47,232 bases of DNA from Prorocentrum cordatum (taxonomy: Eukaryota), in the NCBI GenBank assembly GCA_963575745.1, contig CAUYUJ010000159.1:620001-667232 (forward strand). Reading direction: 5' to 3'. A model generated the notes under the pieces. That model was not told where the DNA came from and did not search any database. It saw nothing but the letters and a program-made list of their open reading frames with translations. Below are positions 7,800-34,979 of the stretch, piece after piece. The translations under genes and the position numbers were made by a program. Every line of letters starts with the position of its first letter. Within the stretch, counting starts at the first letter, position 1.

Positions 7800-8580
7800 T
7801 AATGCAAACTATTTGATTATTTCCTCTCCCGGTCCGTTTCTTATTCAAGGAGGGCCCACGTCGACCCTCTGCCGAACGGCCCCGGAAGAACAGTGCGCGC
7901 AGCGGCGGCGATTACATCCCACGCCCAACTTGGCCGAACTACAATGACATGATACTTGCTCGCAAAACCACCCAGGACTTGCGAGAGAAACTCAAGGCAC
8001 GGGCAGACAAGAACACAAGGTGCACCGCCTCCGAATCAAGAGGCGGCCTGAACATCGATAGGGCAAGATAACTCTGAATTCTCGAGGGCAGGGGCTGGGC
8101 CTCGGATTCGACATGGTGAGAGGAATGAGACGGGACCAGGGCCGAACTACCTGTTTGATTGAGGGCATCCCTGGCGAGGATGCCTCCTGCAGCGGCGGAG
8201 GAGAGGAGGATGACGAAAGGAGGAGGAGGAGGAGGAGGAGGAGGAGGAGGAGGAGGAGGAGGAGAAGAAAGGGGAGGAGGAAATGGATGGGGACGACGAT
8301 GAGGAAGGGGAGGAGGAGTACGAGGACGAGGAGCAAGAGGAACTGCGCAATCACAGCTTGAGAGCGAAATAATTTCGAGCACCCAGAAAACTATCGAAAT
8401 AATGTATGCCCGACACGCTAGCGAAGTGTGAAAGGAGTATCGCCTCCAAGGTCCCGACGCGCCAAAAAACACTTGAGTTTCGGTACTTCTTGGTGCTCGA
8501 AATTCCTTTTGGTGAGCACGGCCAAAGTAGGCTGGAACATCATCAAGCTTGAGAGCGATCTGGCTCCACCTGACTACCTA

Positions 8581-8732
8581 CCAGACCACCCCAACCCAAC
8601 CCGAAGACCCGAACTTCGGGCTGGGTGGGGGGTACGGGTTCTATGTGTGCTTTTCAACGAATGTTCCCGGACCTCCCCACACTGGAAATGGAGGGCAAAC
8701 TGAAGCCTTCGGGTTGGGTTGGGGTGGCTTGG
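8581..8732. mobile_element. 152-bp MITE-like element with 26-bp TIRs
   Basis: CCAGACCACCCCAACCCAACCCGAAG (8581-8606) versus reverse complement of 8707-8732, CCAAGCCACCCCAACCCAACCCGAAG; no clear TSD. Confidence 0.7.
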
Positions 8733-9219
8733 AGGGCGGCGACCACCGTGTCCTCCACCCCCCTCCCCACCTGCGGGCCCCAAGAATATACACCACCACC
8801 ACCTCCATTCCCCCTCCCTCCTCTACTTTCCTCTACCCCTCCTCTTTCCTGAGAGTGGCAGGGGGTGAGGGAGGTGGTGGTGGTGGTGGATATTTTTGGC
8901 CCCCGTAGCCACCATGCCTCCCTCCCGCGGGGGTGGAGCAGAAGCTCGGACCCACGCCGAAGGAAGGCGGCACCCGGGTCCAGCTCACAAGGGCCTCTCT
9001 GCACGACGGGGCGCGGTGCCCGTGCTGGCCGCGCCCGGCGGCGCGTCTGGCGCCGACCGTGCGCAGCGACCCCCCCTACAGGCGGATGTTGGACGAAGAG
9101 TAAGGAAGACTCAAAACATATGCAGAAAGAGTCCAAATTAGTCAAAAGAACCTCCACTTACTATTTTTTCGCTATTTCTGAATATTTCTCCGGTAGAGGG
9201 ACAGGCCCGACTTAACACA

Positions 9220-9414
9220 AGGGGAACAAACAATGACATAAACATGAAAACTCGCAGGTCCGTGCGGATTCCTCGGAGCAGCGCTGGACCCCCCGGCGGC
9301 GCCTCCGGCGCCGCCCCTGGCGCGCTCCGCGCGCCATGCAGGGGGGTCCAACGCCGATCCAAGAAATCCGCGCGAAGCTCGGAGTTTTTCGTTTCTGTCT
9401 CTGTTTGGTCCCCT
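9220..9414. mobile_element. ~195-bp foldback element with a T-shaped head (copy 1)
   Basis: Imperfect arms 9220-9284/9351-9414; perfect stem 9285-9294/9341-9350; inner hairpins GGCGGCGCC-TCC-GGCGCCGCC and TGGCGCGC-TCC-GCGCGCCA. Confidence 0.85.
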
Positions 9415-10013
9415 ACCCCCGCGGCAATCTCAGACGAAGCCATCACGAGGACACCTTCGGGGCAAGATACCTCGAGCATCTCTGAGATCTGGCGGCTCTG
9501 GAGGATGCCTCGGGCGCCGCGGCCTTCTCGGAGCGTTCGGGAACGCTCTGAAGACAGGGGGGGAGGAGGAGGAGGAGGAGGAGGAGGAGGAGGAGGAGGA
9601 GGAGGAGGAGGAGGAGGAGGAGGAGGAGGAGGCCGAGACGGAGCGCTCCGGAGCGGACTTCCCCTCGTCCTGGCCCCTCCCGACGAGCGGCAATCCCCGG
9701 CCAAAGCTCGGCGGCGCGCCCATCCGGAGCCCGGGGGCACACAAAGAAATACACACGAAAATCCCAGGGTCCCCCGTGCTTTCTGATATCTTCTGGAGTT
9801 TCGTCTTCCCACCATCCCCCTTCTCATATCTTCCGGGGGATCGACGATGTTTCCTCCTGGGGGGAAGGTGGAGGAGCCGGAGTCTCTTGGAGGGGGAGAG
9901 GACGGGGACCACGACCAAGGCCGAGCACAGAAACGCAGTGCCGATCTTGGTCACTGTCGATCCTGGGCAGCGCCAACTCGTGCATGGGTCCCGTGTCCTT
10001 CAGTCGATACATG

Positions 10014-10307: not shown

Positions 10308-10467
10308 AGGAGGAGGACGAGGAGGAGGAGGAGGAGGAGGAGGAGGAGGAGGAGGAGGACGAGGAGGAGGAGGAGGAGGGGGAGGGGGAGGGGGAGGAGG
10401 AGGAGGAGGAGGAGGAGGAGGAGGAGGAGGAGGAGGAGGAGGAGGAGGAGGAGGAGGAGGAGGAGGA
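10308..10467. repeat. (GGA)n microsatellite
   Basis: Read directly. Confidence 0.95.
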
Positions 10468-13480: not shown

Positions 13481-15090
13481 GAAGGCGTTTCTTTATGTTC
13501 TGCGATGACGGGCGTCATGGGGGGGGGGGGAGGGCGGGGGGGGGTATGACGTGACGCCCCCCCCCCCGCCGTGTGGCTCCGGCACCACAGCCGCGCCCGC
13601 GCGCACGACGCGACGAGCGACGAGCGACGAGCGACGACGACGACGCGAGCAGCATGTAAGTGGCGATCTGCCTATTGCGCCTGTGTGCACCACAACGCTC
13701 GCCGCGTGCACCACGCCGCGCGCGTGCACCTCAGCGCCTGCGTACACCGCAACAGCCGTGTGCAACGCACCGCCCGTGTATACCACAATACTTGGGAGCA
13801 CTACGTCGCCGGTGTACATACACCGCAGCAGCCATGTGCAACACAACGCGTGTGTACACCACAGTGCTTGCGTGCACCGCAGCGCCCGTGCACGCCACAG
13901 CGCCTGTCTACACCACAGCATCCGCGTGCAACGCAGCGCTGGTGTACACCACAGTGCCTGCGTGCATAGGACAGGTAGAAGGAGCATGTACGTCAGGATC
14001 TGATGCGGACAACTAAACGCCACGCCAGGAAAGTTCTGATAATCGAATGCGACGTTTTTCCCTTCTCCCTCCTCCTCAACCTCCTCCTCCTCCTCCTCCT
14101 CCTCCTCCTCCTCCTCGTCCTCCTGTTCCTCCTTCTTACCCCGTCGTGCGGCTTGGCGTTACAACGCACGTGCGCATCTCAGCGTGCACCGCAGAATGGT
14201 CCATTGAATCGGTCCACTCGGTTCTCGGACGGCCAGTTCAGCTGAAGCCTCCTGGACGCAAGTGGGAGTTAGGGTGATGCGGGCGGACTTGGGGGGACTC
14301 GTAGATTCCAGCGGCGCTCCTTTGTCCATGAAGATTTGTTGTCCACACGCGCTCCATTTTGTCACAAGGATTACTTCTGAAATTCTATACACAACAATGG
14401 TGTTGTGTTGCACACGGCTGATGTGGTGCACACAGGCGCCGTGGCGTACACAGGCACTGCAATGCACGCAGGCATTGTGGTGTACACTGGTGCTGTGTTG
14501 CGCACGGCTGATGTGGTGTACGGAGGCGCTGTGGTGTACACAGGAGTTGCTGTGTCCGCAGGCACGGTGGCACAAGCTGACGCTGTGTTGCACGCGGCTG
14601 CTGGGGTGTACATCGGCGGTGTGGTGTACACAGGCGCTGTGGTGCACGCGGGCACTGTGATGTACACAGGCGTTGTGGTGCATATCGCCACCTACATGTT
14701 CGTGCTACCCGTCCTCCGTCATTCCTAACCATTCCCAAACGCCGCCGGCGCGAAACGTGACGTCATCGACCTCCTCCCCCCCCCCAGATGATTGCCGTCA
14801 TCGGCGCGGACTTAAAAATAGGCTCCAGCCGCGTCCGCGCGCACGACGACGATGAGCGACGAACGACGAACCACGAGCGACGACGACGAACGACGACGAC
14901 GAACGACGACGACGACGCCTGCGGACCAGACACTTGTGCGGATTCCTGCGCGGACACCTACGCGGATCCCAATGCGCAATGCGCACGGCGGCCGTGCCCG
15001 GAGCGCACTGGGGGGGGGAGCGTTACGTCATACGGGGGGGGGGAGCGGGGGCCATGACGCCCGTCATGCCCCAAGCAATCAAGAAATGGC

Positions 15091-15560: not shown

Positions 15561-17970
15561 GGCCTTGCCGACGACGACAACAAACAACAAAACACATACA
15601 ACGCAAAAACCATCCGGGACCATCCGACTTCAGCCACGCGCCCAGGGAAACCGTTCGGCCCCCTCACTCTGACACTGTGTTTGGCCGCCCCTTGCCGCTA
15701 CTACATTGAATGGAGAACTAAACCAATCAAAATCATCCCCGCCCCTGGACAACCTGGACAACCCATGCTGATGAATGACGACAAGACGACCCACTCCAGA
15801 CAACGGGGATCCGAACAACCCCTCCAGACAACCCCCTTGGACAAGCCCCCCGGGATCTCCCTTCCATGAGATATCCTAAGTAATGGGTGAGCCATAACGC
15901 GTTTTGGTGGACATGCTCTTGGCCCCGACTTGACCCCTATGCCTGGGACACAATTTTCGCCCCGTGCCGCGTCTCGCTCTCGATGGCCTGGAGCAGGCCT
16001 CCCGGGGCCGAGCCGACCGTCCATTCGGCCTCTTCGGGACGCCTCTGAGGAGCGGAGAAGTCTCCGCAGCTCCTAGGCAGGACTGGAGGACAGACAATGA
16101 AGGAGAACGTCGGGGGGGAACCAGCGCGGGGGGGGGGGGAACATCGACATGGGATCGGCAAGATATCGCCGATAGATCGGCGGTAGGCCCCCACGATGGC
16201 GAATCTGGATGGTCCTGGGCGAGGCGGGCCAGCAAGCCCCTATCGGCGATCAATGGGCGATTTGGGGTCGATGCGTCCGCTCTTGAGTTGCCCCTGACCA
16301 CCAGGAATCCAACAGTTGTGAAGGCAGACGGACTGAGCTGGATCGTGTCGCCAGATCGAATCGGACAGTTTCGCCTGCACGTTCCGATCCGAACCAAGAT
16401 CGGATCGCCGCGCCAGGCTCTGGCTGGCCCTGGCCGATGCTGGTGCATCGGACCGACTTGAACCAAATCGGAATTGCCGCCCCAGCCGGCAAATCGAATC
16501 GTATCGAATCGGATCGTAGGCGGCACTGACAAGTCCACCTTCGTCATCCTTCGTCCCCCCTCCTCATGTAAACCTGCTTCCCTCCCTTCTTGGAAAAAAA
16601 GAGAGAACGGGGGAACGGAATGGAGCTGCCCTGTTGTGGGCCTTGGAGACGGCAGGACCGTGATTCGTTGTATCCAGCGCTTTCCGCGTCAAGAGCAACA
16701 TTTTGCTGGGGAAGCGGTGCAGGACCCAACGGCCCTGCCGCGCACGGTCAGCTGCAAGACAGGTCAGGTCGAGCCTGCGCGCCCGCGGGGGCGGCCACCC
16801 AGGGCACAGGCGGTGGGTCACAGGCGGTGGGCCACAGCGGGGAGCACGGTGATATGACCTTCGCCGCCATCGTCGACCGAGGACTCGAAGAGCGAGGACC
16901 GTCCGGGCGGCCTTTGGAAGGCTCTCGAGGCTGGGTGCGCTGCATCACGCGCATGCGGCCCCAGCGCCTGGCAATTGTTCTGGCATCCCCGACCCACCCC
17001 CTGATTTCTCGCACAGAACCTGCCCTGACCTCCGCCCCCTAGCTTTTCCACAGCTCCCGGCGTCTGCTTCTTCCTTGAACCCCCCCCCCAAGATTACTCG
17101 CCTAGAATCTACCCCGACACCCACCCCGACCCCAACCGCGCTCGACATCTCTCACCCCTCAGCCCCAGCTCCCACCTTCCGTCTTGAAATCTCCGTACAC
17201 ACACGTGATTTCTCACCCAAAACTTCCTCAAGCCCTCACTCCGATCACCATGCACCGCGCCCGACACGCCTCACCCTCCAGCCCAGCTCCTGGCTTCTGG
17301 TTGGACACTTCCCGCACAACCCCTCGCTGTCTTGTCTTCAGGGCCCCCCGACCGGCCCGGTCGCCCACATGGTCTCGACCCCCCCTGACACCCTTCCCCA
17401 GACCCAAGTCTCGGCTGCCTTGTCAGGCATCTCCAGCCCCTCGATTGTCTCACCAGGACCGACCCTGTCGTCCTCCTTGCCTTGCCTCACCCCTGACATC
17501 CTGAGATCCATCCTCAGTCCAGCCCCAACCACTCTCCGTCTCGTTCGTTTGTCAAGGCCCCCCACCATCTCGATTCTCGCACCCGGATCCTGTCGCTCAC
17601 CTGGTCTCGTCCCACCCTTGGCACTTGGCATCTTTCCCCGATGTCCGACTCTGATTCTCGTGTTCGATGACGTCCCCACCCCCCATCGATCTTCGCACCA
17701 GGACCGACCCTGTCGCCCGCAGGGTGGTCTCGACTCCCCCTGACGTCCTCCCGCAACCCCAACCTCCGTAGCCATCTCGCCCATCTGCTCTCCAACCCAG
17801 CTGGCACCCCCCCTCTGCCACTACCAGGGGGTGTCGTCGGGGAATCGCGACCACCTAGAGCGCCCGCGATGGCCCTAAGTGGACCGAGTACTGCACCAAA
17901 TGACCTCCCAGACGGCGCAAGGACCTCTCCTCCTACCGCGCCTCCCCCCCTCCCTCCCCCCATCGTTGGA

Positions 17971-18133
17971 GGAGGGAACAACATAAACATAAACTTTCGG
18001 ATGTCCGCCCAGACTTCTTCGATCGGCACTGGGCCCCCTCCCTGGCGCGCGGAGCGCGACAAGGACGGCGCCAGAGGTCTGTCCAAGAAATCTGCGCGGA
18101 GCTCCGAAATCTGATGTTTAAGCAATGCTCTCC
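17971..18133. mobile_element. T-head foldback element copy 2 (head inverted, partly deleted)
   Basis: Shares GGGAACAA..ACATAAACAT and CCAAGAAATC(T/C)GCGCG(G/A)AGCTC with copy 1; 18030-18084 aligns to the reverse complement of 9285-9350. Confidence 0.75.
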
Positions 18134-18859
18134 TTCGGTTACCCCTTCCCTCCCCCCTCCCTCCCTCCATCGTCACTGCCCCCACCTCCTTTTCCCCACC
18201 GCCGCCGCGGCCGTCTAGGTCGGGCGCAAGCCGCACAGCAAGCTCCAGAGGAGGCCCGCGAGGTCGCACACCCCATCTCCGACGGCGTCGAAGGCGTCCC
18301 CGATGGTCATCAAGATCTCCTGGCGACGACGGGGGACGATCAAAGGGGGATGGTCAAGGAACAACTTATAGCCGGAATGCAGTATCCCCAAACAGGGTTT
18401 TTCAAATCCGCCGACCCCAGAGGCGTGTGAGGGAAAGTGACCAAACTCGGCCACACCCCCACCCCAGGTAGCTGTGATCACGCCCTCTGCTCTTGGGAAC
18501 CCCGACTCGACATTTCCTGGACCCGAACCATCAACGCCCCCCACCTGGACCCCTTCCTGGCCTGGCATTCCTTGCCGGGACCCCTCCACCACGGTTTCAC
18601 CGCGACTGACACCGCCAGCCTCCTGAGGCCCCTGGGCATACGTTCTTCGGGCCCCCGCACCCTGCAAGATCCTCGCCGGGACCCTTCCACCACGGCTCCA
18701 CCGCGTCTGACCCCGCCAGCCTCCGGAGGCTCCTGGGCATACGTTCTTCGGGCCCCCGCACCCTGCAAAATCCTTGTCGGGATCGTCTGACACCGCCAGC
18801 CCCCCCCCGCTCCGGCACCCCCCCTCCTGCGCCCTGCATGCCCACCCATCCCGAAAGAA

Positions 18860-21800
18860 AAGGCTGTTCTTGGGCCCCCCCACAATGCAAAAACCTCTCC
18901 GGGACCCCCCACCGCGCTCGGCACCACGCCGCCCCAACATGCCAAAATCGGGCTGGCACCCCGCCGCCGCAACAGGCCATTATCGTTGATGCCCATTGAT
19001 TTGTTCAATGTTTTTCGCTTTCACGCTCTCCGACGCTCCACGACCGCCCAAGAGGCCCCGAAGGCCGCTCCCCAAGCCTCTGGAGCTCTGAGTTTGGGCC
19101 CCCCCACTCTGCAAAAACCTCGCCGGGACCCCCCACCGCGCCCCGGCACCCCGCCGCCCCAACAGGCCAAAATCGTTCATTCCCATTGATTTTCTCAATG
19201 TTTTTCGTTTTCCCGCTCTCCGACGCTCCACGACCGCCCAAGAGGCCGCCAAGACCGCTCACCAAGCCACTGGAGCTCTGTTTTTGGGCCCCCCGACTCT
19301 GCAAAAACCTCGCCGGGACCCCCCACCGCGCCCTGGCACCTCGCCGCCCCAACAGGCCCAAATCGTTGATCCCCGTCTTTTTTCAATGTTTTTCGCTTTC
19401 CAGCTTTCCGACGCTCCACGACCGCCCAAGAGGCCCCGAAGACCGCCCCCCAAGCCTCTGGAGCTCTGTTTTTGAGCCCCCCGACTCTGCAAAAACCTCG
19501 CCGGGACCCCCCACCGCGCCCCGGCACCCCGCCGCCCCAACAGGCCAAAATCGTTGATGCCCATTGATTTTTCAATGTTTTCCTTTCCCGCTCTCCAACG
19601 CTCCACGACCGCCCAAGAGGCCCCCAAGACCGCTCCCCAAGCCTCTGGAGCTCTGTTTTTGGGCCCCCCCACTCTGCAAAAACCTCGCCGGGACCCCCCA
19701 CCGCGCCCCGGCACCCCGCCGCCCCAACACGCCAAAATCGTTGATCCCCATTGATTTTTTCAATGTTTTTCACTTTCCAGCTCTCCGACGCTCCACGACC
19801 GCCCAAAAAGCTCCCAAGACCGCCCCCGAAGCCTCTGGGGCTCTGTGTTTGGGCCCCCCGACTCTGCAAAAACCTTGCCGGGGCCCCTCACCGCGCCCCG
19901 GCACCCCGCCGCCCGAACAGGCCAAAATCGTTGATTGACTTTTTCAATGTGTTTCGCTTTCCAGTTTTCCGACGCTCCACGACCGCCCAAGAGGCCCCGA
20001 AGACCGCTCCCCAAGCCTCTGGAGCTCTGTTTTTGGGTTCCCCGACTCTGCAAAAACCTCGCCGGGACCCCCCACCGCGCCCCGGCACCCCGCCGCCCCA
20101 ACAGGCCAAAATCGTGCATTCCCATTGATTGTTTCAATGTTCTTCGCTTTCCCGCTCTCCGACGCTCCACGACCGCCCAAGAGGCCCCGGAGACCGCTCT
20201 CCAAGCTCTTGAAGCTTTGTTTTTGGGCGCTCCGGCTCTGCAAAATCCTCGCCGGGGCCCCCCACCGCGCCCCGGCACCCCGCCGCCCCAGCAGTCCAAA
20301 ATCATTGATTGATTCCCATTTGATGTTTCAATGTTTTTCGCTTTCCAGCTTTCCGACGCTCCACGACCGCTCAAAAAGCCCCCAAGCCCGCTCCCCTAGC
20401 CTCTGGAGCTTTGTTCTTGGGCCCCCCGACTATGCAAAAACCTCGCCGGGGCCCCCCACCGCGCCCTGGCACCCCGCCGCCCCATAAGGCCAAAATAGTT
20501 GATTCGCATTGATTTTTTCAATGTTTTTCGCTTTCCAGCTTTCCGACGCTCCACGACCGCCCACGAGGCCCCCAAGACCGCTCCCCAAGCCTCTGGAGCT
20601 CTGTTTGAGCGCTGTCCCAACAGGCCAAAATCGTTGATTCCCATTGATTTTTTCAATGTTTTTCGCTTTCCAGCTTTCCGACGCTCCACGACCGCCCAAG
20701 GGGCCCCGAAGACCGCTCCCCAAGCCTCTGGAGCTCTGTTTGCGGGCCCCCCCACTCTGCAAAAACCTCGCCGGGACCCCCCACCGCGCCCTGGCACCCT
20801 GCCGCCCCAACAAGCCAAAATAATTGATTCCCATTGATTTTTTCAATGTTTTTCACTTTCCAGTTTTCCGACGCTCCACGACCGCCCACGAGGCCCCCAA
20901 GACCGCTCCCCAAGCCTCTGGAGCTCTGTTTTTGGGCCCCCCGACTCTGCAAAATCCTCGCCGGGGCCCCCCACCGCGCCCCGACACCCCGCCGCCCCAA
21001 CAGTCCAAAATCATTGATTCCCATTGGATTTGTTTTAATGTTTTTCGTTTTCCAGCTTTCCGACGCTCCACGACCGCCCAAGAGGCCCCCAAGACCGCTC
21101 CCCAAGCCTCTGGAGCTCTGTTTGTGGGCCCCCCGGCTTTGCAAAAACCTCGCCGGGACCCCCCACTACGCTCCGGCACCCCGCCGCCCGAACAGGCCCA
21201 AATCGTTGATTCCCATTGATTTTTTCAATGTTTTTCGTTTTCCAGCTTTCCGATGCTCCACGACCGCCCAAGAGGCCCCGAAGACCGCTCCCCAAGCCTC
21301 TGGAGCTCTGTCTTTGAGCCCCCCGACTCTGCAAAAACCTCGCCGGGGCCCCCCACCGCGCCCCGGCACCCCGCCGCCCCAACAAGCCAAAATCGTTGAT
21401 GCCCATTGATTTTTTCAATGTCTTTCCCTTTCCCGTTCTCCAACGCTCCACGACCGCCCAAGAGGCCCCAAAGACCGCTCCCCAAGCCTCTGGAGCTCTT
21501 GTTTCGGGCCCCCCCCACTCTGCAAAAACCTCGCCGGGACCCCCCACCGCGCCCCGGCACCCCGCCGCCCCAACAAGCCAAAATCGTTGATTCCCATTGC
21601 TTTTTTCCATGTTTTTCACTTTCCAGCTCTCCGACGCTCCACGACCGCCCAAGAAGCTCCCAAGACCGCTCCCGAAGCCTCTGGGGCTCTGTGTTTGGGC
21701 CCCCCGACTCTGCAAAAACCTTGCCGGGACCCCTCACCGCGCCCCCGCACCCCGCCGCCCGAACAGGCCAAAATCGTTGATTTCCATTGACTTTTTCAAT

Positions 21801-24800
21801 GCGTTTCGCTCTCCAGCTTTCCGACGCTCCACGACCGCCCACGAGGCCCCGAAGACCGCTCCCCAAGCCTCTGGAGCTCTGTTTTTGGGTTCCCCCACTC
21901 TGCAAAAACCTCGCCGGGACCCCCCACCGCGCCCCGGCACCCCGCCGCCCCAACAGGCCAAAATCGTTGATTCCCATTGACTTTCTCAATGTTCTTCGCT
22001 TTCCCGCTCCCCAACGCTCCACGACCGCCCAAGAGGCCCCCAAGACCGCTCTCCAAGCTCTTGGAGCTCTGTTTTTGGGCGCTCCGACTCTGCAAAAACC
22101 TCGCCGGGACCCCCCGCCGCGCTCCGGCACCCCGCCGCCCCAACAGGCCAAAATCGTTGATCCCCATTGATTTTTTCAATGTTTTTCACTTTCCAGCTTT
22201 CCGACGCTCCACGACCGCCCAAGAGGCCCCGATGACCGCTCCCCAAGCCTCTGGAAGCCTCTGGAGCTCTGTTTGTGGACCCCCCGACTCTGCAAAATCT
22301 TCGCCGGGGCCCCCCACCGCGCCCTGGCACCCCGCCGCCCCAGCAGTCCAAAATCATTGATTCCCATTGGATGTTTCCATGTTTTTCGCTTTCCAGCTTT
22401 CCGACGCTCCACGACCGCCCAAGAAGCCCCCAAGCCCGCTCCCCTAGCCTCTGGAGCTCTGTTCTTGGGCCCCCCGACTCTGCAAAAACCTCGCCGGGGC
22501 CCCCCGCCGCGCCCTGGCACCCTGCCGCCCCAACAGGCCAAAATAGTTGATTCGCATTGATTTTTTCACTGTTTTTCACTTTCCAGTTTTCCGACGCTCC
22601 ACGACCGCCCACGAGGCACCCAAGACCGCTCCCCAAGCCTCTGGAGCTATGTTTGTGGGCCCCCCGACTCTGCATAATCCTCGCCGGGGCCCCCCACCGC
22701 GCCCCGGCACCCCGCCGCCCCAACAATCCAAAATCATCGATTCCCATTGGATGTTTCAATGTTTTTCGCTTTCCAGCTTTCCGACGCTCCACGACCGCCC
22801 AAGGGGCCCCCAAGCCCGCTCCCCTAGCCTCTGGAGCTCTGTTCTTGGGCCCCCCGACTCTGCAAAAACCTCGCCGGGACCTCCCACAGCGCCCCGGCAC
22901 CCCGCTGTCCCAACAGGCCAAATCGTTGATTCCCATTTTTTTGCTTCCCAGCTTTCCGACGCTCCACGACCGCCCAAGAGGCCCCCAAGACCACTCCCCA
23001 AGCCTCTGGAGCTCTGTTTTTGGGCCCCCAGGCTCTGCAAAAACCTCGCCGGGACCCCCCATTACGCTCCGGCACCCCGCCGCCCGAACAGGCCAAAATC
23101 GTTGATTCCAATTGATTTTTTACATGTTTTTCGCTTTCCAGTTTTCCGACGCTCCACGACCGCCCAAGAGGCCCCGAAGACCGCTCCCCAAGCCTCTGGA
23201 GCTCTGTTTTTGAGCCCGACTCTGCAAAAAACCTCGCCGGGACCCCCCGCCGCGCCCCGGCACCCCGCCGCCCCAACAGGCCAAAATCGTTGATTCCCAT
23301 TGATTTTTTTCAATGTTTTTCCCTTCCCGCTCTCCAACGCTCCACGACCGCCCAAGAGGCCCCCAAGACCGCTCCCCAAGCCTCTGGAGCTCTGTTTTTG
23401 GCCCCGGACTCTGCAAAAACCTCGCCGGGCCCCCCCACCGCGCCCCGGCACCCCGCCGCCCCAACAAGCCAAAATCGCTGATGCTCATTGATTTTTTCAA
23501 TGTTTTTCGCTTTCCAGCTCTCCGACGCTCCACGACCGCCCAAGAAGCTCCCAAAACCGCTCTCGAAGCCTCTGGGGCTCTGTGTTTGGGCCCCCCGACT
23601 CTGCAAAAACCTTGCCGGGACCCCTCGCCGCGCCCCGGCACCCCGCCGCCCGAACAGGCCAAAATCGTTCATTCCCACTGTTTTTTTCAAAATGTCTTTC
23701 GCTTCCCAGCTTTCCGACGCTCCACGACCGCCCAAGAGGCCCCCAAGACCGCTCCCCAAGCCTCTGGAGCTCTGTTTGTGGACCCCCCGACTCTGCAAAA
23801 TCCTCGCCGGGACCCCCCGCCGCGCCCTGGCACCCCGCCGCCCCAGCAGTCCAAAATCATTGATCCCCATTGGATGTTTCAATGTTTTTCGCTTTCCAGC
23901 TTTCCGACGCTCCACGACCGCCCAAGAAGCCTCCAAGCCCGCTCCCCTATCCTCTGGAGCTCTGTTCTTGGGGCCCCCGACTCTGCAAAAACCTCGCCGG
24001 GACCCCCCACCGCGCCCTGGCACCCCGCCGCCCCAACAGGCCAAAATAGTTGATTCGCATTGTTTTTTTTTCAATGTTTTCCACTTTCCAGTTTTCCGAA
24101 GCTCCACGACCGCCCACGAGGCCCCCAAGACCGCCCCTCAAGCCTCTGGAGCTCTGTTTTTGGGCCCCCCGACTCTGCAAAATCCTCGCCGGGGCCCCCC
24201 ACCGCGCCCCGGCACCCGGCCCGCCCAACAGTCCGAGGCATCGAGTCCCCATTGATGTCGTCACTTCATTGTGAGCGACGCGGCCAACGCTCACCGACCG
24301 ACCAAGAGGCCCCCAAGCCCGCTACCCTAGCCTCTGGAGGCTCTGTTCTTGGACCCCAGCCCCGACTCTGCAAAAACCTTGCCGGGACCTCCCACCGCGC
24401 ACCGGCACCCCGCTGTCCCAACAGGCCCAACTCGTTGATTTTCATTGATTTTTTCAATGCATTTCGCTTTCCAGCTTTCCGACGCTCCACGACCGCCCAA
24501 GAGGCCCCCAAGACCACTCCCCAAGCCTCTGGAGCTCTGTTTTTGGGCACCCCGGCTCTGCAAAAACCTCGCCGGGACCCCCGCTGCGCTCCGGCACACC
24601 GCCGCCCGAACACGCCAAAATCGTTGATTCCCACTGTTTTTTTCAATGTCTTTCGCTTTCCAGCTTTCCGACGCTCCACGACCGCCCAAGAGGCCCCCAA
24701 GACGCTCCCCAAGCCCTCGACAGCTCATGTTTGTGGGCCCCCAGACTCTGAAACACACCCGCGGGGACCCCCCGCGCGCCCCTGGCCACACCGCCGCCCC

Positions 24801-27800
24801 AACAGGCCAAAATAGTTGATTCGCATTGTTTTGTTGTTTTTTTCGAATGTTTTCAATGTTTTTCACTTTCCAGTTATCCGACGCTCCACGACCGCCCACG
24901 AGGCCCCCAAGACCACTCCCCAAGCCTGTGGAGCTCTGTTTTTGGGCCCCCCGGCTCTGCAAAAACCTCGCCGGGACCACCCGGTACGCTCCGGCACCCC
25001 GCCGCCCGAACAGGCCAAAATCGTTGATCCCCATTGATTTTTTCAATGTTTTTCGCTTTCCAGCTTTCCGACGCTCCACGACCGCCCAAGAGGCCCCCAA
25101 GCCCGCTCCCCTAGCCTCTGGAGCTCTGTTCGTGGGCGCCCCGACTCTGCAAAAACCTCGCCGGGACCTCCCACCGCGCCCCGGCACCCCGCTGTCCCAA
25201 CAGGCCCAAATCGTTGATTCCCATTGATTTGTTCAATGTTTTTCGCTTTCCAGCTTTCCGACGCTCCACGACCGCCCAAGAGGCCCCCAAGACCGCTCCC
25301 CAAGCCTCTGGAGCTCTGTTTTTGGGCCCCCCCACTCTGCAAAAACCTCGCCTGGACCCCCCGACATACGCTCCGGCACCCCGCCCGCCGAACAGGCCAA
25401 AATCGTTGATTCCCATTGGTTTTTAAAATGTTTTCGCTTTCCAGCTTTCGACGGCTCAACGACCGCCCAGAGGCCCCGAAGACGACTCCCAAGCCTCTGG
25501 AGCTATGTTTTTCGGGCCCCCCAGACTCTGCAAAATCCTCGCCGGGACCTCCCACCGCGCCCCGGCACCCCGCCGCCCCAACAGGCCAAAATCATTGATG
25601 CCCATTGATTTTTTCAAATGTTTTTCCCTTTCCCGCTCTCCAACGCTCCACGACCGCCCAAGAGGCCCCCAAGACCGCTCCCCAAGCCTCTGGAGCTCTG
25701 TTTCTGCGCCCCCCCACTCTGCAAAAACCTCGCCGGGACCCCCCGCCGCGCCCCGGCACCCCGCCGCCCGAACGGGCCAAAATCATTCATTCCCATTGAT
25801 TTTTTCAATGTTTTTCACTTTCCAGCTCTCCGACGCTCCACGACCGCCCAAGAAGCTCCCAAGACCGCTCCCGAAGCCTCTGGGGCTCTGTGTTTGGGCC
25901 CCCCGACTCTGCAAAAACCTTGCCGGGACCCCTCACCGCGCCCCGGCACCCCGCCGCCCGAACAGGCCAAAATCGTTGATTCCCATTGACTTTTTCAATG
26001 TTTTTCGATTTCCAGCTTTCCGACGCTCCACGACCGCCCAAGAGGCCCCGAAGACCGCTCCCCAAGCCTCTGGAGCTCTGTTTTTGGGCCCCCCGACTCT
26101 GCAAAAACCTCGCCGGGACCCCCACTACGCTCCAGCACCCCGCCGCCCCAACAGGCCCAAATCGTTCATTCCCATTGATTTTTTCAATGTTCTTCGCTTT
26201 CCCGCTCTCCGACGCTCCACGACCGCCCAAGGGGCCCCCAAGACCGCTCTCCAAGCTCTTGGAGCTCTGTTTTTGGGCGCTCCGACTCTGCAAAAACCTC
26301 GCCGGGACCCCCCGCCGCGCCCCGGCACCCCGCCGCCCCAACAAGCCAAAATCGTTGAACCCCATTGATTCGTTCAATGTTTTTCACTTTCCAGCTTTCC
26401 GACGCTCCACGACCGCCCAAGAGGCCCCGAAGACCGCTCCCCAAGCCTCTGGAGCTCTGTTTGTGGGCCCCCCGACTCTGCAAAATCCTCGCGGGGCCCC
26501 CCACCGCGCCCGGCACCCCGCCCCCAGCAGTCCAAAATCATTTGATTTCCCATGGTGTTTCAATGTCTTTCGCTTTCAGCTTTCCGACGCTCCACGATCA
26601 GCCCAAGAAGCCCCCAAGCCCGCTCCCCTAGCCTCTGGAGCTCTGTTCTTGGGCCCCCCGACTCTGCAAAAACCTCGCTGGGGCCCCCCACCGCGCCCTG
26701 GCACCCCGCCGCCCCAACACGCCAAAATCGTTGATCCCCATTGATTTTTTCAATGTTTTGTCACTTTCAAGTTTTCCGACGCTCCACGACCGCCACGAGG
26801 CCCCCAAGACCGCTCCCCAAGCCTCTGGAGCTCTCTTTTTGGGCGCCCGACTCTGCAAAATCCTCGCCGGGGCCCCCCACCGCGCCCCAGCACCCCGCCG
26901 CCCCAACAGTCCAAAATCATCGATTCCCCTTGGATTTTTCAATGTTTTTCGCTTTCCAGCTTTCCGACGCTCCACGACCGCCCAAGAAGCCCCCAAGTCC
27001 GCTCTCCTAGCCTCTGGAGCTCTGTTCTTGGGCCCCCCCGACTCTGCAAAAAACCTCGCCGGGACCTCCCACCGCGCCCCGGCACCCCGCTGTCCCAACA
27101 GGGCCAACTCGTTGATTCCCATTGATTTTTTCAATGTTTTTCGCTTTCCAGCTTTCCGACGCTCCACGACCGCCCAAGAGGCCCCCAAGACCACTCCCCA
27201 AGCCTCTGGAGCTCTGTTTTTGGGCCCCCCGGCTCTGCAAAATCCTCGCCGGGACCCCCCACTACGCTCCGGCACCCCGCCGCCCGAACAGGCCATTATC
27301 GTTGATTCCTATTGATTTTTTCAATGTCGTTCGCTTTCCAGCTTTCCGACGCTCCACGACCGCCCAAGAGGCCCCGAAGACCGCTCCCCAAGCCTCTGGA
27401 GCTCTGTTTTTGAGCCCCCCGACTCTGCAAAAACCTCGCCGGGGCCCCCCACCGCGCCCCGGCACCCCGCCGCCTCAACAGGCCCAAAACGTTGATTCCC
27501 ATTGATTTTTTCAATGTTTTTCCCTTTCCCGCTCTCCAGCGCTCCACGACCGCCCAAGAGGCCCCCAAGACCGCTCCCCAGGCCTCTGGAGCTGTCTTTT
27601 TGGGTTCCCCCACTCTGCAAAATCTTCGCCGGGACCCCCCACCGCGCCCCGGCACCCCGCCGCCCCAACACGCCAAAATCGTTGAACCCCATTGATTCGT
27701 TCAATGTTTTTCACTTTCCAGCTCTCCGACGCTCCACGACCGCCCAAGAAGCTCCCAAGACCGCTCCTGAAGCCTCTGTGGCTCTGTGTTTGGGCCCCCC

Positions 27801-28885
27801 GACTCTGCAAAAACCTTGCCGGGACCCCTCACCGCGCCCTGGCACCCCGCCGCCCCAACAGGCCAAAATCGCTCATTCCCATTAATTTTTTCAATGTTCT
27901 TCGCTTTCCCGCTCTCCGACGCTCCACGACTGCCCAAGAGGCCCCCAAGACCGCTCCCCAAGCCTCTGGAGCTCTGTTTTTGGGCGCTCCGACTCTGCAA
28001 AAACCTCGCCGGGACCCCCCACCGCGCCCCGGCACCCCGCCGCCCCAGCAGGCCAAAATCGTTGACTCCCATTGATTTTTTCAATGTTTTTCACTTTCCA
28101 GCTTTCCGACGCTCCACGACCGCCCAAGAGGCCCCGAAGATCGCTCCCCAAGCCTCTGAAGCTCTGTTTGTGGGCCCCCCGACTCTGCAAAATCCTCGCC
28201 GGGGCCCCCCACCGCGCCCCGGCACCCCGCCGCCCCAGCAGTCCAAAATCATTGATTCCCATTGGATTTTTCAATGTTTTTCGCTTTCCAGCTTTCCGAC
28301 GCTCCACGACCGCCCAAGAAGCCCCCAAGCCCGCTCCCCTCGCCTCTGGAGCTCTGTTCTTGGGACCCCCGACTCTGCAAAAACCTCGCCGGGACCTCCC
28401 ACCGCGCCCCGGCACCCCGCTGTCCCAACAGGCCCAAATCGTTGATTCCCATTGATTTTTCAATGTTTTTCGCTTTCCAGCTTTCCGACGCTCCACGACC
28501 GCCCAAGAGGCCCCCAAGACCGCTCCCCAAGCTCTGGAGCTCTGTTTTTGAGCTTCCCGAATCTGCAAAAACCTCGCCGGGACCCCCCACCGCGCCCCGG
28601 CACCCCGCCGCCCCAACAGGCCAAAATCGCTGATTCCCATTGATTTTTTCAATGTTTTTCGCTTTCCCGCTTTCCGACGCTCCACGACCGCCCAAGAGGC
28701 CCCCAAGACCACTCCGCAAGCCTCTGGAGCTCTGTTTGTGGGCCCCCCGACTCTGCAAAAACCTCGCCGGGACCCCCCACCGCGCCCTGGCATTCCGCCG
28801 CCCCAACAGGCCAAAATCGTCGAGTCCCATTGATTTTTTCAATGTTTTTCGCTTTCCAGCTTTCCGACGCTCCACGACCGCCCCA
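18860..28885 (+). repeat. 190-bp satellite array (about 52 monomers) with a ~10-monomer higher-order repeat
   Basis: Monomer GGCCAAAATCGTTGATTCCCATTGATTTTTTCAATGTTTTTCGCTTTCCAGCTTTCCGACGCTCCACGACCGCCCAAGAGG...CCCCAACA at 190-bp spacing; diagnostic variants recur about every 1.9 kb. Confidence 0.97.
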
Positions 28886-29289
28886 GATGGACCCAAAACT
28901 CCCACAAAAAAATCGAAGACAACCGCAGAAGACACAAAGGAGAGAGGAAGAGAGCGAGAGAAAGAGAGGAAAAAAACACGCCCAAACACACGCGCGCATT
29001 GCCCTGGCCTACCCATACTCCATATGAACACTACCCCCCTGTTGCAGGAAAGCTCGCGGGGACCAACTGAAACCAAAGAAAACACGAGGCCCGATTTGGG
29101 GTCGGCGGCAGAGGCCCCCCCCCCGGCAGCTTTAAATTAAACCCAATGCTGTTCCCAAATCCGCGAAGAGTTGGTCCAGTGCGGGCTGGCATGGCATGTT
29201 AGAACATGCCTCCTCCTCCTCCTCCTCCTCCTCCTCCTCCTCCTCCTCCTCCTCCTCCTCCTCCTCCTCCTCCTCCTCCTATTCATCCC

Positions 29290-30765: not shown

Positions 30766-30900
30766 GGGGAAAAATCTGAACGAACACTAACTATCGCAGG
30801 TCCACGCAGGTTTCTTGGATCGTTGAAGGCGCCGCCAGGGACCAATGCCAACCCAAGAAATCCGCGCGGAGTTCCTAAAGTGTGACATGCTTACACAGCT
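30766..30900. mobile_element. T-head foldback element copy 3 (internally deleted)
   Basis: CGCAGGTCC..GTTTCTTGGATCG left arm, residual GGCGCCGCC, and CCAAGAAATCCGCGCGGAG right arm. Confidence 0.6.
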
Positions 30901-31559
30901 GAGCTAAGCGACGACAATTTGAATTGCGCGGCGGCTTGTGCGGGCCGCCGGCGCGGCACGCCTCATTGGAAGCGAAGGCGCTTACGCGCGATCTTCCGCT
31001 GGCAGCTTGCGCGCCAACGTCGGGGAAGACGGCCCTGATCTCTTTCGGCGTGCAGCTGATTGTCCTTCGGGATGACCGACGATGGGGAACAACTGGGAGA
31101 CGGATTCGCCGTCTGGAGGCCTTCCCCGACAGAGCGTGCCCGTGGTGCACTCCCAAAAGGGGGGGGTCCCCCCTTAGCTATCCCCCCCAACTGGACCTCA
31201 CCTGACGGAAGCCCCCCCTCTCAGATCTTCCCGCCCCTCGGAAGCTCCCACCCTCCCATTCGCGCTCCGGAAGCTTACCCCCCCCTCCCTTTCCAAAGGG
31301 GGGGGGCTTAGCTCCCCCCCCCTTGGACCTCCCCTGCCGGAAAGCCCCTCCCCCTTTCCCCCCCCCCCCCCTCGGAAGCTCCCCCCCTCGTACCTCTCGC
31401 GCTCCGTAAGCTGCCCCCGCCCCTCTCCATTTCCCACGGGGGGGGGGGGGCTCAGCTATTCCCCTCTCTTTGAATTCTCCCTGCGGGGAAGCCCCACCCG
31501 CCCACCCTTTTTGGCTAGTGATGGGGGGCGGGCTTGGAAGCCCCCCCTTTTGGCTAAAG

Positions 31560-33660
31560 GATCGCCAAAGACCAAAAGGGCGCCGAAAGCCAACGTAGCG
31601 CCGACAACAAAAGCGGCGCCGACAACCGAAAGAGTGCGAAAACCAAAAGGGCACCGAAAACCGAAGGAACGCCGAATACCGAAAGGGCGCCGAAAGCAGA
31701 GGGCGTGCGCCGAAAACCAAAGGGCGCCGAAAACCACAGGAGCACCGAAAACCAAAGGAGCGCCGAAAACCAAGTGGGCGCCAAAAAACTGACAGGGCGC
31801 CGACAAACCAAAGAGAGCTGAAAACCGAAGGAACGCAGAAAACCACAAGAGCGCCGAAAGCAAAAGGGCGCCAAAAACCAGAAGGCGCCAAAAACAGAAC
31901 GATCGCCGAAAACCAAGGGACCCCGAAAACCCAACAAGTCTCCGAAAACCAGCCGGGCGCCGAAAACCAACGAGACGCAGAAAACACAAGAGCACCGACA
32001 ACCAAAGCAACGCCGAAAACTAGAAGGGCGCCGCAAACCACAGAGCTCCGAAACCCAAAGAGCGTCACACCAAAGGGTCGCCGAACTTGATAAGGTCGCC
32101 AGAAGACACAGGGGTGCCGAACACCATTGGGGCGCCGACAGCCGAAGGGTCGCCAAACCCCCAAAATGCACCGAAGACAAAAACGTGCCGAAAACCAAAG
32201 AAGCGCCGAAAACCCAAAGGGCACCGAAAACCCAAACGGCGCCGAAAACACAAAAACGCCGAAAACCAAAGGGGCGCCGAAAACCACAGAGGCGCCGCGA
32301 ACCGAAGGAGTGCAGAAAACCGAAATGGTGCCGAACACCAAAAGAGCGCCGAAAACCAACGGGGCGCAGAAAACCAACGATGCGCCGAAAACTCACAGGG
32401 CGCTGACAAATCAAAGGGGCGCCGATCACCAGAAGGGCGCCGCAAACGAAAAAGGCACCGAAAATAACAAAAAGCTCCGAAGATGGACAGGGCTCCGAAA
32501 ACAAAAAAAACGCTGAAAACCAAAGGGGCGCCGAAAACCAAAGCGGCGCCGAAAACCAGAGGGCGCCGAAAACCGAAGAAACACCGAAGACCAAAAGGGC
32601 GCGCCGATAACCAAAAGGGCGCCGAAAACCGCAGGAACGCCGAAAACCAAAGGCGCGCCGAAAGATGCAAAGCAGGAAGTAAGATATTCAGGAAGATGCA
32701 AAGCAGTTCTTTTCTGTGGGGGGGCGAAGAAAGAAGGGGGAAGACGAGGGGGAAACAAAAGAGGATGAGTGTGAGAAAGGTGAGGATGACAACGAAGCCA
32801 CGGACGAGGAGGAAGACGAGAACGAGGAAAATAGAGAGAAGCAGGAAGGGGAGGAGGAGGAGGAGGAGGAGAGATGAAGAGGAGGAGCAGCAGCAACAGA
32901 AACGTCAACTGAAATAGCAAGGGGCCAGCGGAAGAAAGATACGCTTGATGCATTCTGCACGCGGTGGAAGCAGGAGGGGCCCGCCGGCATCACTACCCGA
33001 GGTTATCCGACGACAACTCCGAAGCACGCGCAACTTACAAATTCGCTTCAAAATTCAAAACTTTGTTTTCCGCGCACATGCGGATCGCACATTTCGCCGA
33101 GACCTTTCGAAATCCACTCAAGATTCAATGCTGAAGCATTGCAGCGCAAAAAGGGCGTCCAAAACCAAAGGGAAGCGGAAAACGAGCGCCGAAAACCAGC
33201 AAGGCGCCGAAAACTTAAAGGAACACCGAAAACCAAAAAAAGCGCCGAAAACCAAAAATGCACCGGAAACCAGAAAGAAGCGCCGGAACCCAGGAGGGCG
33301 CCGAAAACCAACGACGCACCAAAAACACCAAGTCGTGCAAAAAACCACAAGGAACGTCGAAAACCAAAGGTGCGCCGGAAACCAGAACGGAGCGCTGGAA
33401 CCCAAGAGGGCGCCGAAAACCAACGACGCGACGAAAACCAAAAGGCGCGCAGAAAACCACAAGGAACGCCGAAAACCAAAGGCACGCCTAAAACCAAAGG
33501 GGTGCCGAAAACCAACGGAGCGCCGAAAGCCAAAGACACTCCGAAAACCAAAGGGGCGTCAAATGCCCATGGGGCGCCGAGAAACTACAAAAAGCACTGA
33601 AAACCAAAGAAGCGCTAAAAAACTACAAGTGCGCCGAAAACTCAAGGGGAACCGAAAGAC
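31560..33660 (+). repeat. 18-bp minisatellite (GCGCCGAAAACCAAAGGG)n in two blocks split by ~32670-33145
   Basis: Read directly; flanked on both sides by CGGAAGCCCCCC-type repeats. Confidence 0.95.
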
Positions 33661-34499
33661 AAACAAGGAAAGTAGTTTCGACGCCCCCTCTTCAGCCAGG
33701 GCCCTCCGTCTGGAAAAGCGAACAGAAAGTTGGGAGGGGGGGCACCTTCGGAAGCCGCCCCGCGCGTTGGAAGCCAGGAGCCCCCAAGCTACAAAGTCCA
33801 AACAAAAGAAAGAGGGGGGGTAATTTCGGAAACCCTTTCAGCTGATAAGAGGGGGCCGGGTTAGCCCAACGCCCTGAAAAGGAAGTGGAGGGGGGTCCAA
33901 GCCCCATCCTTGAACTAGGGCCCCGCGCAGTTAAGAAATCCAGGACAAAAGGGGGGAGGGGCGGGTAGTTTCGGAAGCCCCCCCTTTCCAAGGCAGGGGG
34001 GGGGTTGAAGCTGGGGCCCTTCTTTTATTGAGAGGCGTGCCGCGAGCGCGCTCTCTCTTCCACAGGGGCCTCAGAGAACCTGGCGCCTCTGGGAAGCCGC
34101 CGCTGACACTTTGGGGCCCAGGCCCCAGAGCGCCGGCGGTGGAAAGACGCGGGGGAGCAGCGAGGGGGAGGGGGAATGGAGGGCGCGGGTGGAGGCGCGA
34201 TGTGTATGCGCGCGCCGATTTTGGCCAGGGCCACCACGCGGATCGAGGCACGAGCACCATGCACATGCACCAGTCCTGTCCAGGCCCACCCTGGGCCCGG
34301 GATCGGAGCGCGCGCCCTCTGGGCTTGGCAGGGGAGGCATGCGCGCCGGCCCTGGGCCCAGAACGGGCCCTGCCAGGATCGTCGCGCGCGCGTCTTGTTC
34401 ACCGCCCGAACGGAAAAGGGATGAGAAAGAGAAGGCAGAGGGCCCTGCTCCGTGTCTTCATGACCTCCTCCTCCTCCTCCTCCTCCTCCTCCGCCTCCG

Positions 34500-34533
<34 letters not shown>

Positions 34534-34979
34534 CTCCTCCTCCTCCTCCTCCTCCTCCTCCTCCTCCTCCTCCTCCTCCTCCTCCTCCTCCTCTCCCATC
34601 GCGCGTGCTCCGCGCAACTGGGTCCCTCAAGCAGTGGCACTCGGCCGCCGCGCCTAGAATCTGACCGCGCGGATGACGGAGACTCTCTGGGCAGGGGGGG
34701 CGGCGGCGGCGCGGCAGCAGCGCGCAACGACGCACCAAAGATGGCGCGGGCCTCATGAAATCCGCCGATCCGGCGTGTGAGTTTCAAGGAGTCTCAGCTA
34801 CAGCCTCGAGGCTGAGCCTCAGCCTCTGGGGGGGTTGCCGGGGTGGCTCTGCCGGGGAAGGGGGGGTGGGGGGGGTGGGGGGGTGGGGGGGGTGCGAGTT
34901 TCCGGCGGATGCGTTTTTTGACACTCCTCACAAGGATCGTGGCCTCCGAGGGGGTTTCGAACTCGAGTACCACCCCTCC

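Follow-up and report, generated by a model that had tools for sequence, protein, structure and literature searches.

T-shaped DNA termini that occur as flip and flop isomers arise from rolling-hairpin replication by HUH Rep proteins, in parvoviruses such as AAV. A foldback of the same outline (hereafter copy 1) lies in a 47,232-nt stretch of the genome of the dinoflagellate Prorocentrum cordatum, the whole of which was analyzed and is referred to below as the window, and an earlier note on this DNA had read it and two further copies as apparent flip and flop isomers of a tiny element that is copied through a hairpin intermediate or contains an invertible segment. The question raised by this locus is therefore whether a repeat of a cellular genome is propagated in the manner of a parvovirus terminus, or whether it is an ordinary foldback repeat with an unusual center. 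If the head of the element inverts freely, this would point to a hairpin-based mode of copying that cellular repeats are not known to use; the answer also bears on dinoflagellate genomes in general, which are huge and whose repeats are mostly unclassified, the present family being apparently among the abundant ones. The window itself is about 60% G+C and rich in tandem and dispersed repeats, and its composition matches the high G+C reported in the accessible part of the P. cordatum preprint (10.1101/2022.07.25.501386).

A Foldback Capped by Two Perfect GC Hairpins

Folded as single-stranded DNA, copy 1 forms one long stem with a T-shaped head (table 1) at a free energy of -73.1 kcal/mol, as opposed to -37.4 +/- 3.7 kcal/mol in 200 shuffled sequences (z = -9.55), none of which folds as well (0/200). 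Its 64-nt core (9286-9349) still reaches z = -6.29 when folded alone, and an identical structure is obtained when copy 1 is folded as RNA (z = -9.83). The arms are 73.6% complementary over 201 nt in a self reverse-complement BLAST, forming an imperfect stem of about 75 nt per arm, and the two head hairpins, B and C, are flawless and stand 2 nt apart at the center of this stem. Because a spacer of 4 nt follows hairpin C on one side only, the head is asymmetric. Across the window, with microsatellites excluded, there are about eight perfect hairpins of at least 8 bp, compared with a mean of 3.5 in Markov simulations. The architecture claimed at the outset, a stem of about 74 bp capped by two perfect GC hairpins with TCC loops, is thus borne out by the folding scores of the entire element and of its core.

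Table 1. Coordinates of the foldback copies, their parts, and related features in the window.
Feature	Position	Strand	Basis or remark
Copy 1, full-length foldback	9220-9414	.	DNA/RNA fold z, self reverse-complement BLAST
Copy 1 left arm	9220-9294		
Copy 1 head	9295-9340		
Copy 1 right arm	9341-9414		
Head hairpin B, 9-bp perfect GC stem, TCC loop	9295-9315	.	Fold, hairpin scan
Head hairpin C, 8-bp perfect GC stem, TCC loop	9318-9336	.	Fold, hairpin scan
4-nt spacer after hairpin C, right side only	9337-9340		
Copy 2, degraded	~17967-18136	.	Head in reverse-complement order (C', truncated B'); inner right stem partly lost
Copy 3, degraded	30766-30900	.	Both mid-arms kept; most of head and inner stems lost
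Diverged partial duplicate of copy 2 head, right arm, and 3' flank	17870-17969	.	Local alignment
Possible fourth relative, right-arm-like stretch only	29060-29180	.	nhmmer E about 4
Other high-copy repeat adjoining copy 1 left end	9164-9219	.	Depth profile, loose ends at 9215

By these scores (z = -9.55 for the whole, -6.29 for the core), copy 1 has the T-shaped hairpin that characterizes a parvovirus-type ITR. As in the AAV-type ITR, a long stem is capped by two small hairpins and two head orientations are seen among copies; unlike that ITR, the hairpin here is the entire element, with no unique coding sequence held between two termini. On reading of the sequence, the stem of copy 1 shows no evident tetranucleotide repeat, and neither a Rep-binding repeat nor a nicking site was recognized in it. 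The hairpin at the 3' terminus of Helitrons can likewise be short, perfect, and GC-rich with a tiny loop, but a Helitron is an asymmetric element with a single hairpin near its 3' end, whereas the present element has two hairpins at the center of a 195-nt palindrome.

Two Decayed Relatives in the Window

Copies 2 and 3 are related to copy 1: a 19-nt right-arm motif occurs exactly three times in the window and once more with three mismatches (0.10 occurrences expected), an nhmmer profile run over the window recovered the three copies and nothing else that was convincing, and the similarity between copies ends at the boundary of the foldback. When the copies are aligned in six rows, the plus-strand head of copy 2 matches the minus-strand head of copy 1, which upholds the reverse-complement order that had been proposed for copy 2; its structure fares less well, the B hairpin being truncated and the fold modest (z = -3.1). 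Copy 3 folds no better than its shuffles (z = +0.37). Only a 9-mer of its head is left, and either reading of this 9-mer needs deletions, so that the head orientation of copy 3 is ambiguous, and the B' arm that was said to lie beside its right arm is not confirmed. The possible fourth relative (z = -0.44) was left out of every tally.

Target-site duplications were sought at the three copies. Copy 1 has no flanking direct repeat at a seed of 6 nt. A direct repeat of about 45 nt around copy 2 was considered as a long target-site duplication and rejected, as it corresponds to a local tandem duplication of the right half of the copy together with its flank. At copy 3, where the right end of the element is degraded, the candidate duplication TTTGAATT was rejected as well because it sits 53 nt beyond the element end. 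The direct repeat at copy 2 runs from 17925 to 17964 and from 18128 to 18167, and the diverged partial duplicate that precedes this copy aligns locally with a score of 61.5, relative to 31.4 +/- 4.2 (maximum 45) in 200 shuffles. Copy 2 and its 3' flank are tandemly duplicated as a block (17870-18173), the upstream unit of which is reduced to about 100 nt. The copies have therefore decayed in ordinary ways, through internal deletions in copies 2 and 3 and a tandem duplication at copy 2, with copy 1 lying against another repeat.

A 190-bp satellite occupies 18899-28887, with about 52 units and a plus strand that is strongly C-rich (GC skew about -0.35); copy 2 flanks it on the left, and the possible fourth relative and copy 3 flank it on the right.

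A Very Abundant Family with a Conserved Center

A search of sequencing runs had found only small shares (at most 0.15), with no RNA run among those listed. The family was then traced in Logan contigs from four of the public runs, which were aligned to 8700-9545 at a likeness of at least 80%. The contigs placed on this stretch, which also includes other repeats, numbered 3995, 1388, 11365, and 148, and their depth peaks at 9280-9366, over the head and inner stems. In three of the runs, head and inner stem occur together in more than 100 different contigs apiece, and the majority letter of the family at 9337 is carried by at least 116, at least 100, at least 121, and at least 8 contigs in the four runs, respectively. 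The unique stretch 8932-9047 has zero cover, so that depth sums do not represent copy numbers; in the same runs, the surroundings of copy 1 hold high-copy repeats at 8700-8757, 9164-9221, and 9454-9545.

The high-copy repeat that adjoins the left end of copy 1 mostly continues differently past 9215 in its other copies, and a joint from 9215 to 9466 with 28 other letters between was found in one contig each in X1 and X3. Judged from these junctions, copy 1 looks like an insertion into that repeat, the paralogs of which are too diverged for the junction to be placed.

At 9255, 9263, 9271, 9337, 9339, and 9351, copy 1 has private letters, most of the family reading another. Within 9295-9336, by contrast, the head of copy 1 is identical to the family majority, and no variant reaches 10% among those listed. 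The same constancy is seen after translation (see below), where hairpin C reads LARSAR in all six aligned sequences and the head as a whole is nearly invariant in five unrelated predicted proteins. There are also hints of covariation between paired stem positions: in Logan contigs, 9288 A>G accompanies 9347 T>C in partial shares, and 9355 C>G occurs in the family with the complementary change in one contig.

Copy 1 has the small size, lack of coding content, and inverted ends by which MITEs and foldback elements are recognized, and its family shows their many dispersed copies (three in 47 kb, more than 100 contigs in each of three runs, and six translations). We conclude that copy 1 is one worn member of a foldback family that is non-coding and reaches very high copy number in a dinoflagellate genome. 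The suggestion of a tiny non-autonomous element is reasonable in this light, given the very many copies and the absence of any Pfam domain in the ORFs of the window.

Coding Content and Searches of Sequence Collections

The Pfam search covered 145 ORFs of at least 110 aa, chosen from 261 by dropping low-complexity frames and starts within 18.5-29 kb. At the curated cut-offs none of them matched (0/145), the few weak matches all being to low-complexity families; no Rep, SF3 helicase, or transposase domain was found in this set, from which intron-split or distant genes would escape. Across the whole window, no Rfam family reached its gathering score. Larger elements or viruses that end in this hairpin and carry a Rep gene had been envisaged for the family. 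The window offered no Pfam domain that would belong to one, and the viral and prokaryote collections offered no motif match: the right-arm 19-mer gave no match in the viral contig collection, and viral and prokaryote genome contigs contained no match to the head 26-mer, an arm 22-mer, or a gapped head pattern. The 19-mer pattern required the terminal AG variant of the window, so that copies with the GAC form of the family escape it. Its 23 matches in metagenome contigs were rejected as chance, since BLAST aligned only the pattern itself (19-26 nt).

No description of the family emerged from the searched literature on dinoflagellate foldback and MITE elements or on flip/flop hairpin transposons, and none of the papers searched contains any of three motifs taken from the element; the supplementary introner tables of P. 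cordatum lay outside this search and might list such introns.

Additional Copies Recovered from Predicted Proteins

Gene callers read through a G+C-rich repeat of this kind, and on this rationale copy 1 was translated and searched against protein collections. One frame of copy 1 led to P0002 and another to six proteins at E <= 0.001, among which P0003 (2321 aa, no aligned stretch) was left out and P0004-P0008 were kept; in each of these five, the head is read as AAPPAPPLARSARQGGG or as a closely similar peptide. A search for longer proteins returned none, and neither did a second frame. In P0006, the repeat (residues 15-75) lies in frame upstream of a glycosyltransferase DXD domain (144-222). 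The source of P0002 is labeled as a EukProt entry of the green alga Pyramimonas sp., which is not a dinoflagellate, and this label could mean either that the entry is contaminated or that the family has a broader range of hosts.

These matches are relevant to annotation, in that predicted proteins containing AAPPAPPLARSARQGGG represent read-through of the repeat, and gene models of this group of organisms may carry translated repeat at their 5' ends.

A Single Arm Marker and the Orientation of the Head

Because the stem is palindromic, an inverted head between constant arms amounts to a reversal of the whole element, unless the two arms differ from one another. Compared over all columns, the arms of any two copies are as similar in the same as in the inverted orientation (86/148 vs. 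90/148 for copies 1 and 2, 79/151 vs. 78/148 for copies 1 and 3, and 85/148 vs. 84/148 for copies 2 and 3), and among the doubly asymmetric columns the division is 2 to 4, 2 to 2, and 2 to 0. Taken whole, the arms carry no polarity. The consistent arm asymmetry invoked in the earlier note consequently fails over the full set of columns and survives at a single marker column, where it is a real feature of the family beyond the window.

At this marker, the left arm reads GGAGGTCC versus GGAGCTCC and the right arm GGAGCTCC versus GGACCTCC; copy 1, read with B before C, has GGTCC on the left and AGCT on the right. In the six protein-derived copies the marker bases fall at codon positions that change the residue. 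The left-arm GGTCC form is present in four, possibly five, of the six: P0002, P0004, P0005, and P0008 have Val at this position (base G), P0007 has Arg (not C), and P0006 has Phe (T). The right-arm AGCT/AGTT form is present in four, probably five; here P0005, P0006, and P0007 have Ala and P0008 has Val (base G), whereas P0004 has Pro, the paired state (base C), and P0002 has Ser (ambiguous, probably G). From this back-translation of single codons we infer the marker bases, and the G-G mismatch that they form in the stem is then a feature of the family, with the same polarity as in copy 1 when the head is read B then C. All six protein-derived copies read the head in that order by construction, and the marker residues are two of about 56, so that little retrieval bias is possible.

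The linkage between marker and head is clear in four copies (copy 1, P0005, P0007, and P0008) and probable in two (P0002 and P0006), P0004 being symmetric and copy 3 having no assignable orientation. The reversed combination is found in none of the six protein-derived copies, and copy 2, discordant at both marker bases, is the sole exception. Rolling-hairpin replication predicts flip and flop at about 1:1, and under such a ratio the one-sided probability of at most one exception lies between 0.06 (n = 7) and 0.19 (n = 5). Counted against the arm marker, head orientations among these few copies (four clear and two probable linked cases, one exception) appear to depart from the near-equality that free flip and flop would produce; with one-sided P at 0.06 to 0.19, a 1:1 ratio is disfavored rather than rejected, and copy 2 may represent an occasional head inversion. 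The G-G mismatch provides a handle for orienting the copies of an otherwise palindromic element, and makes the flip/flop question testable on the full assembly.

Several further candidates for orientation signals were rejected. Joints on opposite strands (9291-9299 / 9331-9344) could be taken for flop isomers, but the same joint arises without inversion because the left arm of copy 1 is diverged, so that the arms of other copies fit its better-kept right arm on the other strand. Loose ends that show B' or C beside the stem are uninformative on account of the same divergence, and an "inner stem" marker for copy 2 comes down to private divergence of the left arm of copy 1. A second arm marker, the base opposite 9361 (G in the loose-end consensus), was abandoned because four protein-derived copies read the paired base; at this position P0008 has C, like copy 1, and P0002 is unreadable.

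Probable Origin of the Family and Possible Origins of Copy 2

We consider it probable, at roughly 0.6, that copy 1 represents an old and mutated member of a highly repeated MITE-like foldback family, which is non-coding and organized around a conserved core of two GC hairpins. An enzyme whose gene lies elsewhere, most likely a transposase recognizing the inverted ends, would mobilize the copies in trans; the core may act as a binding or structural site, and insertion could take place in either orientation. As the stem is a near-perfect palindrome, elements inserted in opposite directions give the appearance of constant arms around a head that has been inverted. MITEs and other foldback non-autonomous transposons, including the introners of dinoflagellates, are likewise about 200 nt long and non-coding, with inverted ends that pair over the full length, and are likewise very high in copy number, dispersed, and found in or near gene models in both orientations. 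The nearest relatives in kind, as far as the accessible parts of these sources describe them, are the introners of Amoebophrya (PMC7789003), of Polarella and Symbiodinium (10.1101/2020.10.14.339549), and of P. cordatum (10.1101/2022.07.25.501386), from which the present element differs in that its best-conserved part is the central pair of perfect GC hairpins and not the termini. On present evidence this is a foldback of ordinary type whose core is unusually neat, in a family that is unnamed and of a kind already known.

Some observations count against a MITE-like foldback moved by a transposase in trans. The conserved part of the element is its center, whereas a transposase acting on terminal repeats alone predicts conserved termini, although this comparison covers the center only, since the outer arms of copy 1 have diverged too far for contigs of the family to be aligned to them; no target-site duplication was demonstrated, and neither an autonomous partner nor a transposase was found in the window or in the collections searched. 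A plain transposase model also leaves unexplained why the stems of the head are near-invariant while loops and arms vary, and why there are hints of paired changes in the stem. These two features sustain, at low probability, the bolder reading of copying through a hairpin.

Copy 2 needs an additional step under the same reading. It could have undergone a rare secondary inversion of the loop between its arms, through recombination or template switching within the palindrome; alternatively, repeated mutation at the marker site may have produced the same state, for instance if a symmetric type (such as P0004) acquired the same substitution. By mutation alone, copy 2 is two specific substitutions away from the common type and one away from the symmetric type. 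In plastid non-coding DNA, hairpin loops bounded by short inverted repeats are known to undergo small inversions, and an event of that type, here a rare nuclear one, would explain copy 2 without a dedicated enzyme, though not the spread of the family.

The proposal that motivated this study, that an HUH-type Rep copies the element via a single-stranded hairpin and yields flip and flop in about equal numbers independently of the arms, has become very unlikely. It draws on the T-shaped head with two perfect and strongly conserved small hairpins, on the head of copy 2, which is inverted relative to a stem marker that is valid beyond the window, and on the hints of joint change at paired stem positions, as would fit arms that are copied from each other. 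However, the hairpin stands alone and terminates no longer unit, and the element departs further from an AAV-type ITR in that the ORFs of the window contain no Rep, helicase, or other domain, the viral contig collection yielded no match to its head and arm motifs, and the head is for the most part linked to the marker (four clear and two probable cases, with one exception). A comparably slight chance attaches to a gene-less cellular counterpart of the parvovirus telomere, in which the double-hairpin core would be the functional part of an element copied by way of a folded single strand, whether HUH-like or fold-back-primed, a process that would keep the arms complementary and occasionally invert the head; if true, this would explain both the complementarity of the arms and the inversion in copy 2.

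An introner-type origin, with copies inserted in transcribed regions and spliced out, would make the GT (or GC) of the left-arm marker a donor and the AG of the right-arm marker an acceptor. In keeping with this, all three window copies read (A/T)G followed by GT on the left and AG followed by (C/T)T on the right of the plus strand, and a GTAAGG, preceded by a unique open frame with an ATG start, is found 120 nt upstream of copy 1; moreover, the accessible parts of the relevant papers report introners with inverted ends as enriched in P. cordatum introns (10.1101/2022.07.25.501386) and as present in other dinoflagellates (10.1101/2020.10.14.339549; PMC7789003). We nevertheless regard it as unlikely. 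The element is translated without interruption in six predicted proteins, in one of which a genuine glycosyltransferase domain follows it, so that it is not removed in those models, and the base that follows the putative AG is C or T. Introners are defined, in the accessible text, by inverted repeats of 8-20 nt at both ends and direct repeats of 3-5 nt at the borders (PMC7789003); inverted ends are seen at copy 1, but no convincing short direct repeat accompanies them. In the cited introner papers, the defining feature of the elements is a set of short inverted and direct repeats at the termini, and the accessible parts of these papers do not describe the present family. The least credible account is a structured-RNA gene, such as the precursor of a small-RNA hairpin, in place of mobile DNA: the same fold does form as RNA (z = -9.83) and copies do lie within transcript-derived or predicted gene models, but no Rfam family matched the window at its gathering score, copies 2 and 3 no longer have this structure, both strands are equally foldable as expected of a DNA palindrome, and thousands of diverged contigs suit a repeat better than a gene family.

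Other Features of the Window

The unique open frame upstream of copy 1 extends over 8913-9105, with its ATG in a CACCATG context and a textbook AG/GTAAGG donor at 9100/9101; on this arrangement of signals, copy 1 may be located in an intron. Runs of short repeats are also found near copy 1 and beyond it: an (AGG)n run (10308-10467) and a (CCT)n run (34464-34593) form an inverted pair of 130 nt at a distance of 24 kb, and further GAG-rich runs occupy 8176-8364 and 9510-9686. Another inverted repeat, with arms of 149 nt that are 77% complementary and lie 494 nt apart (13819-13967 / 14462-14610), overlaps a 90-nt tandem repeat. Finally, two arrays of an A-rich 18-nt unit with the consensus CGCCGAAAACCAAAAGGG extend over 31556-32663 and 33180-33641, with an extreme AT skew of +0.64.
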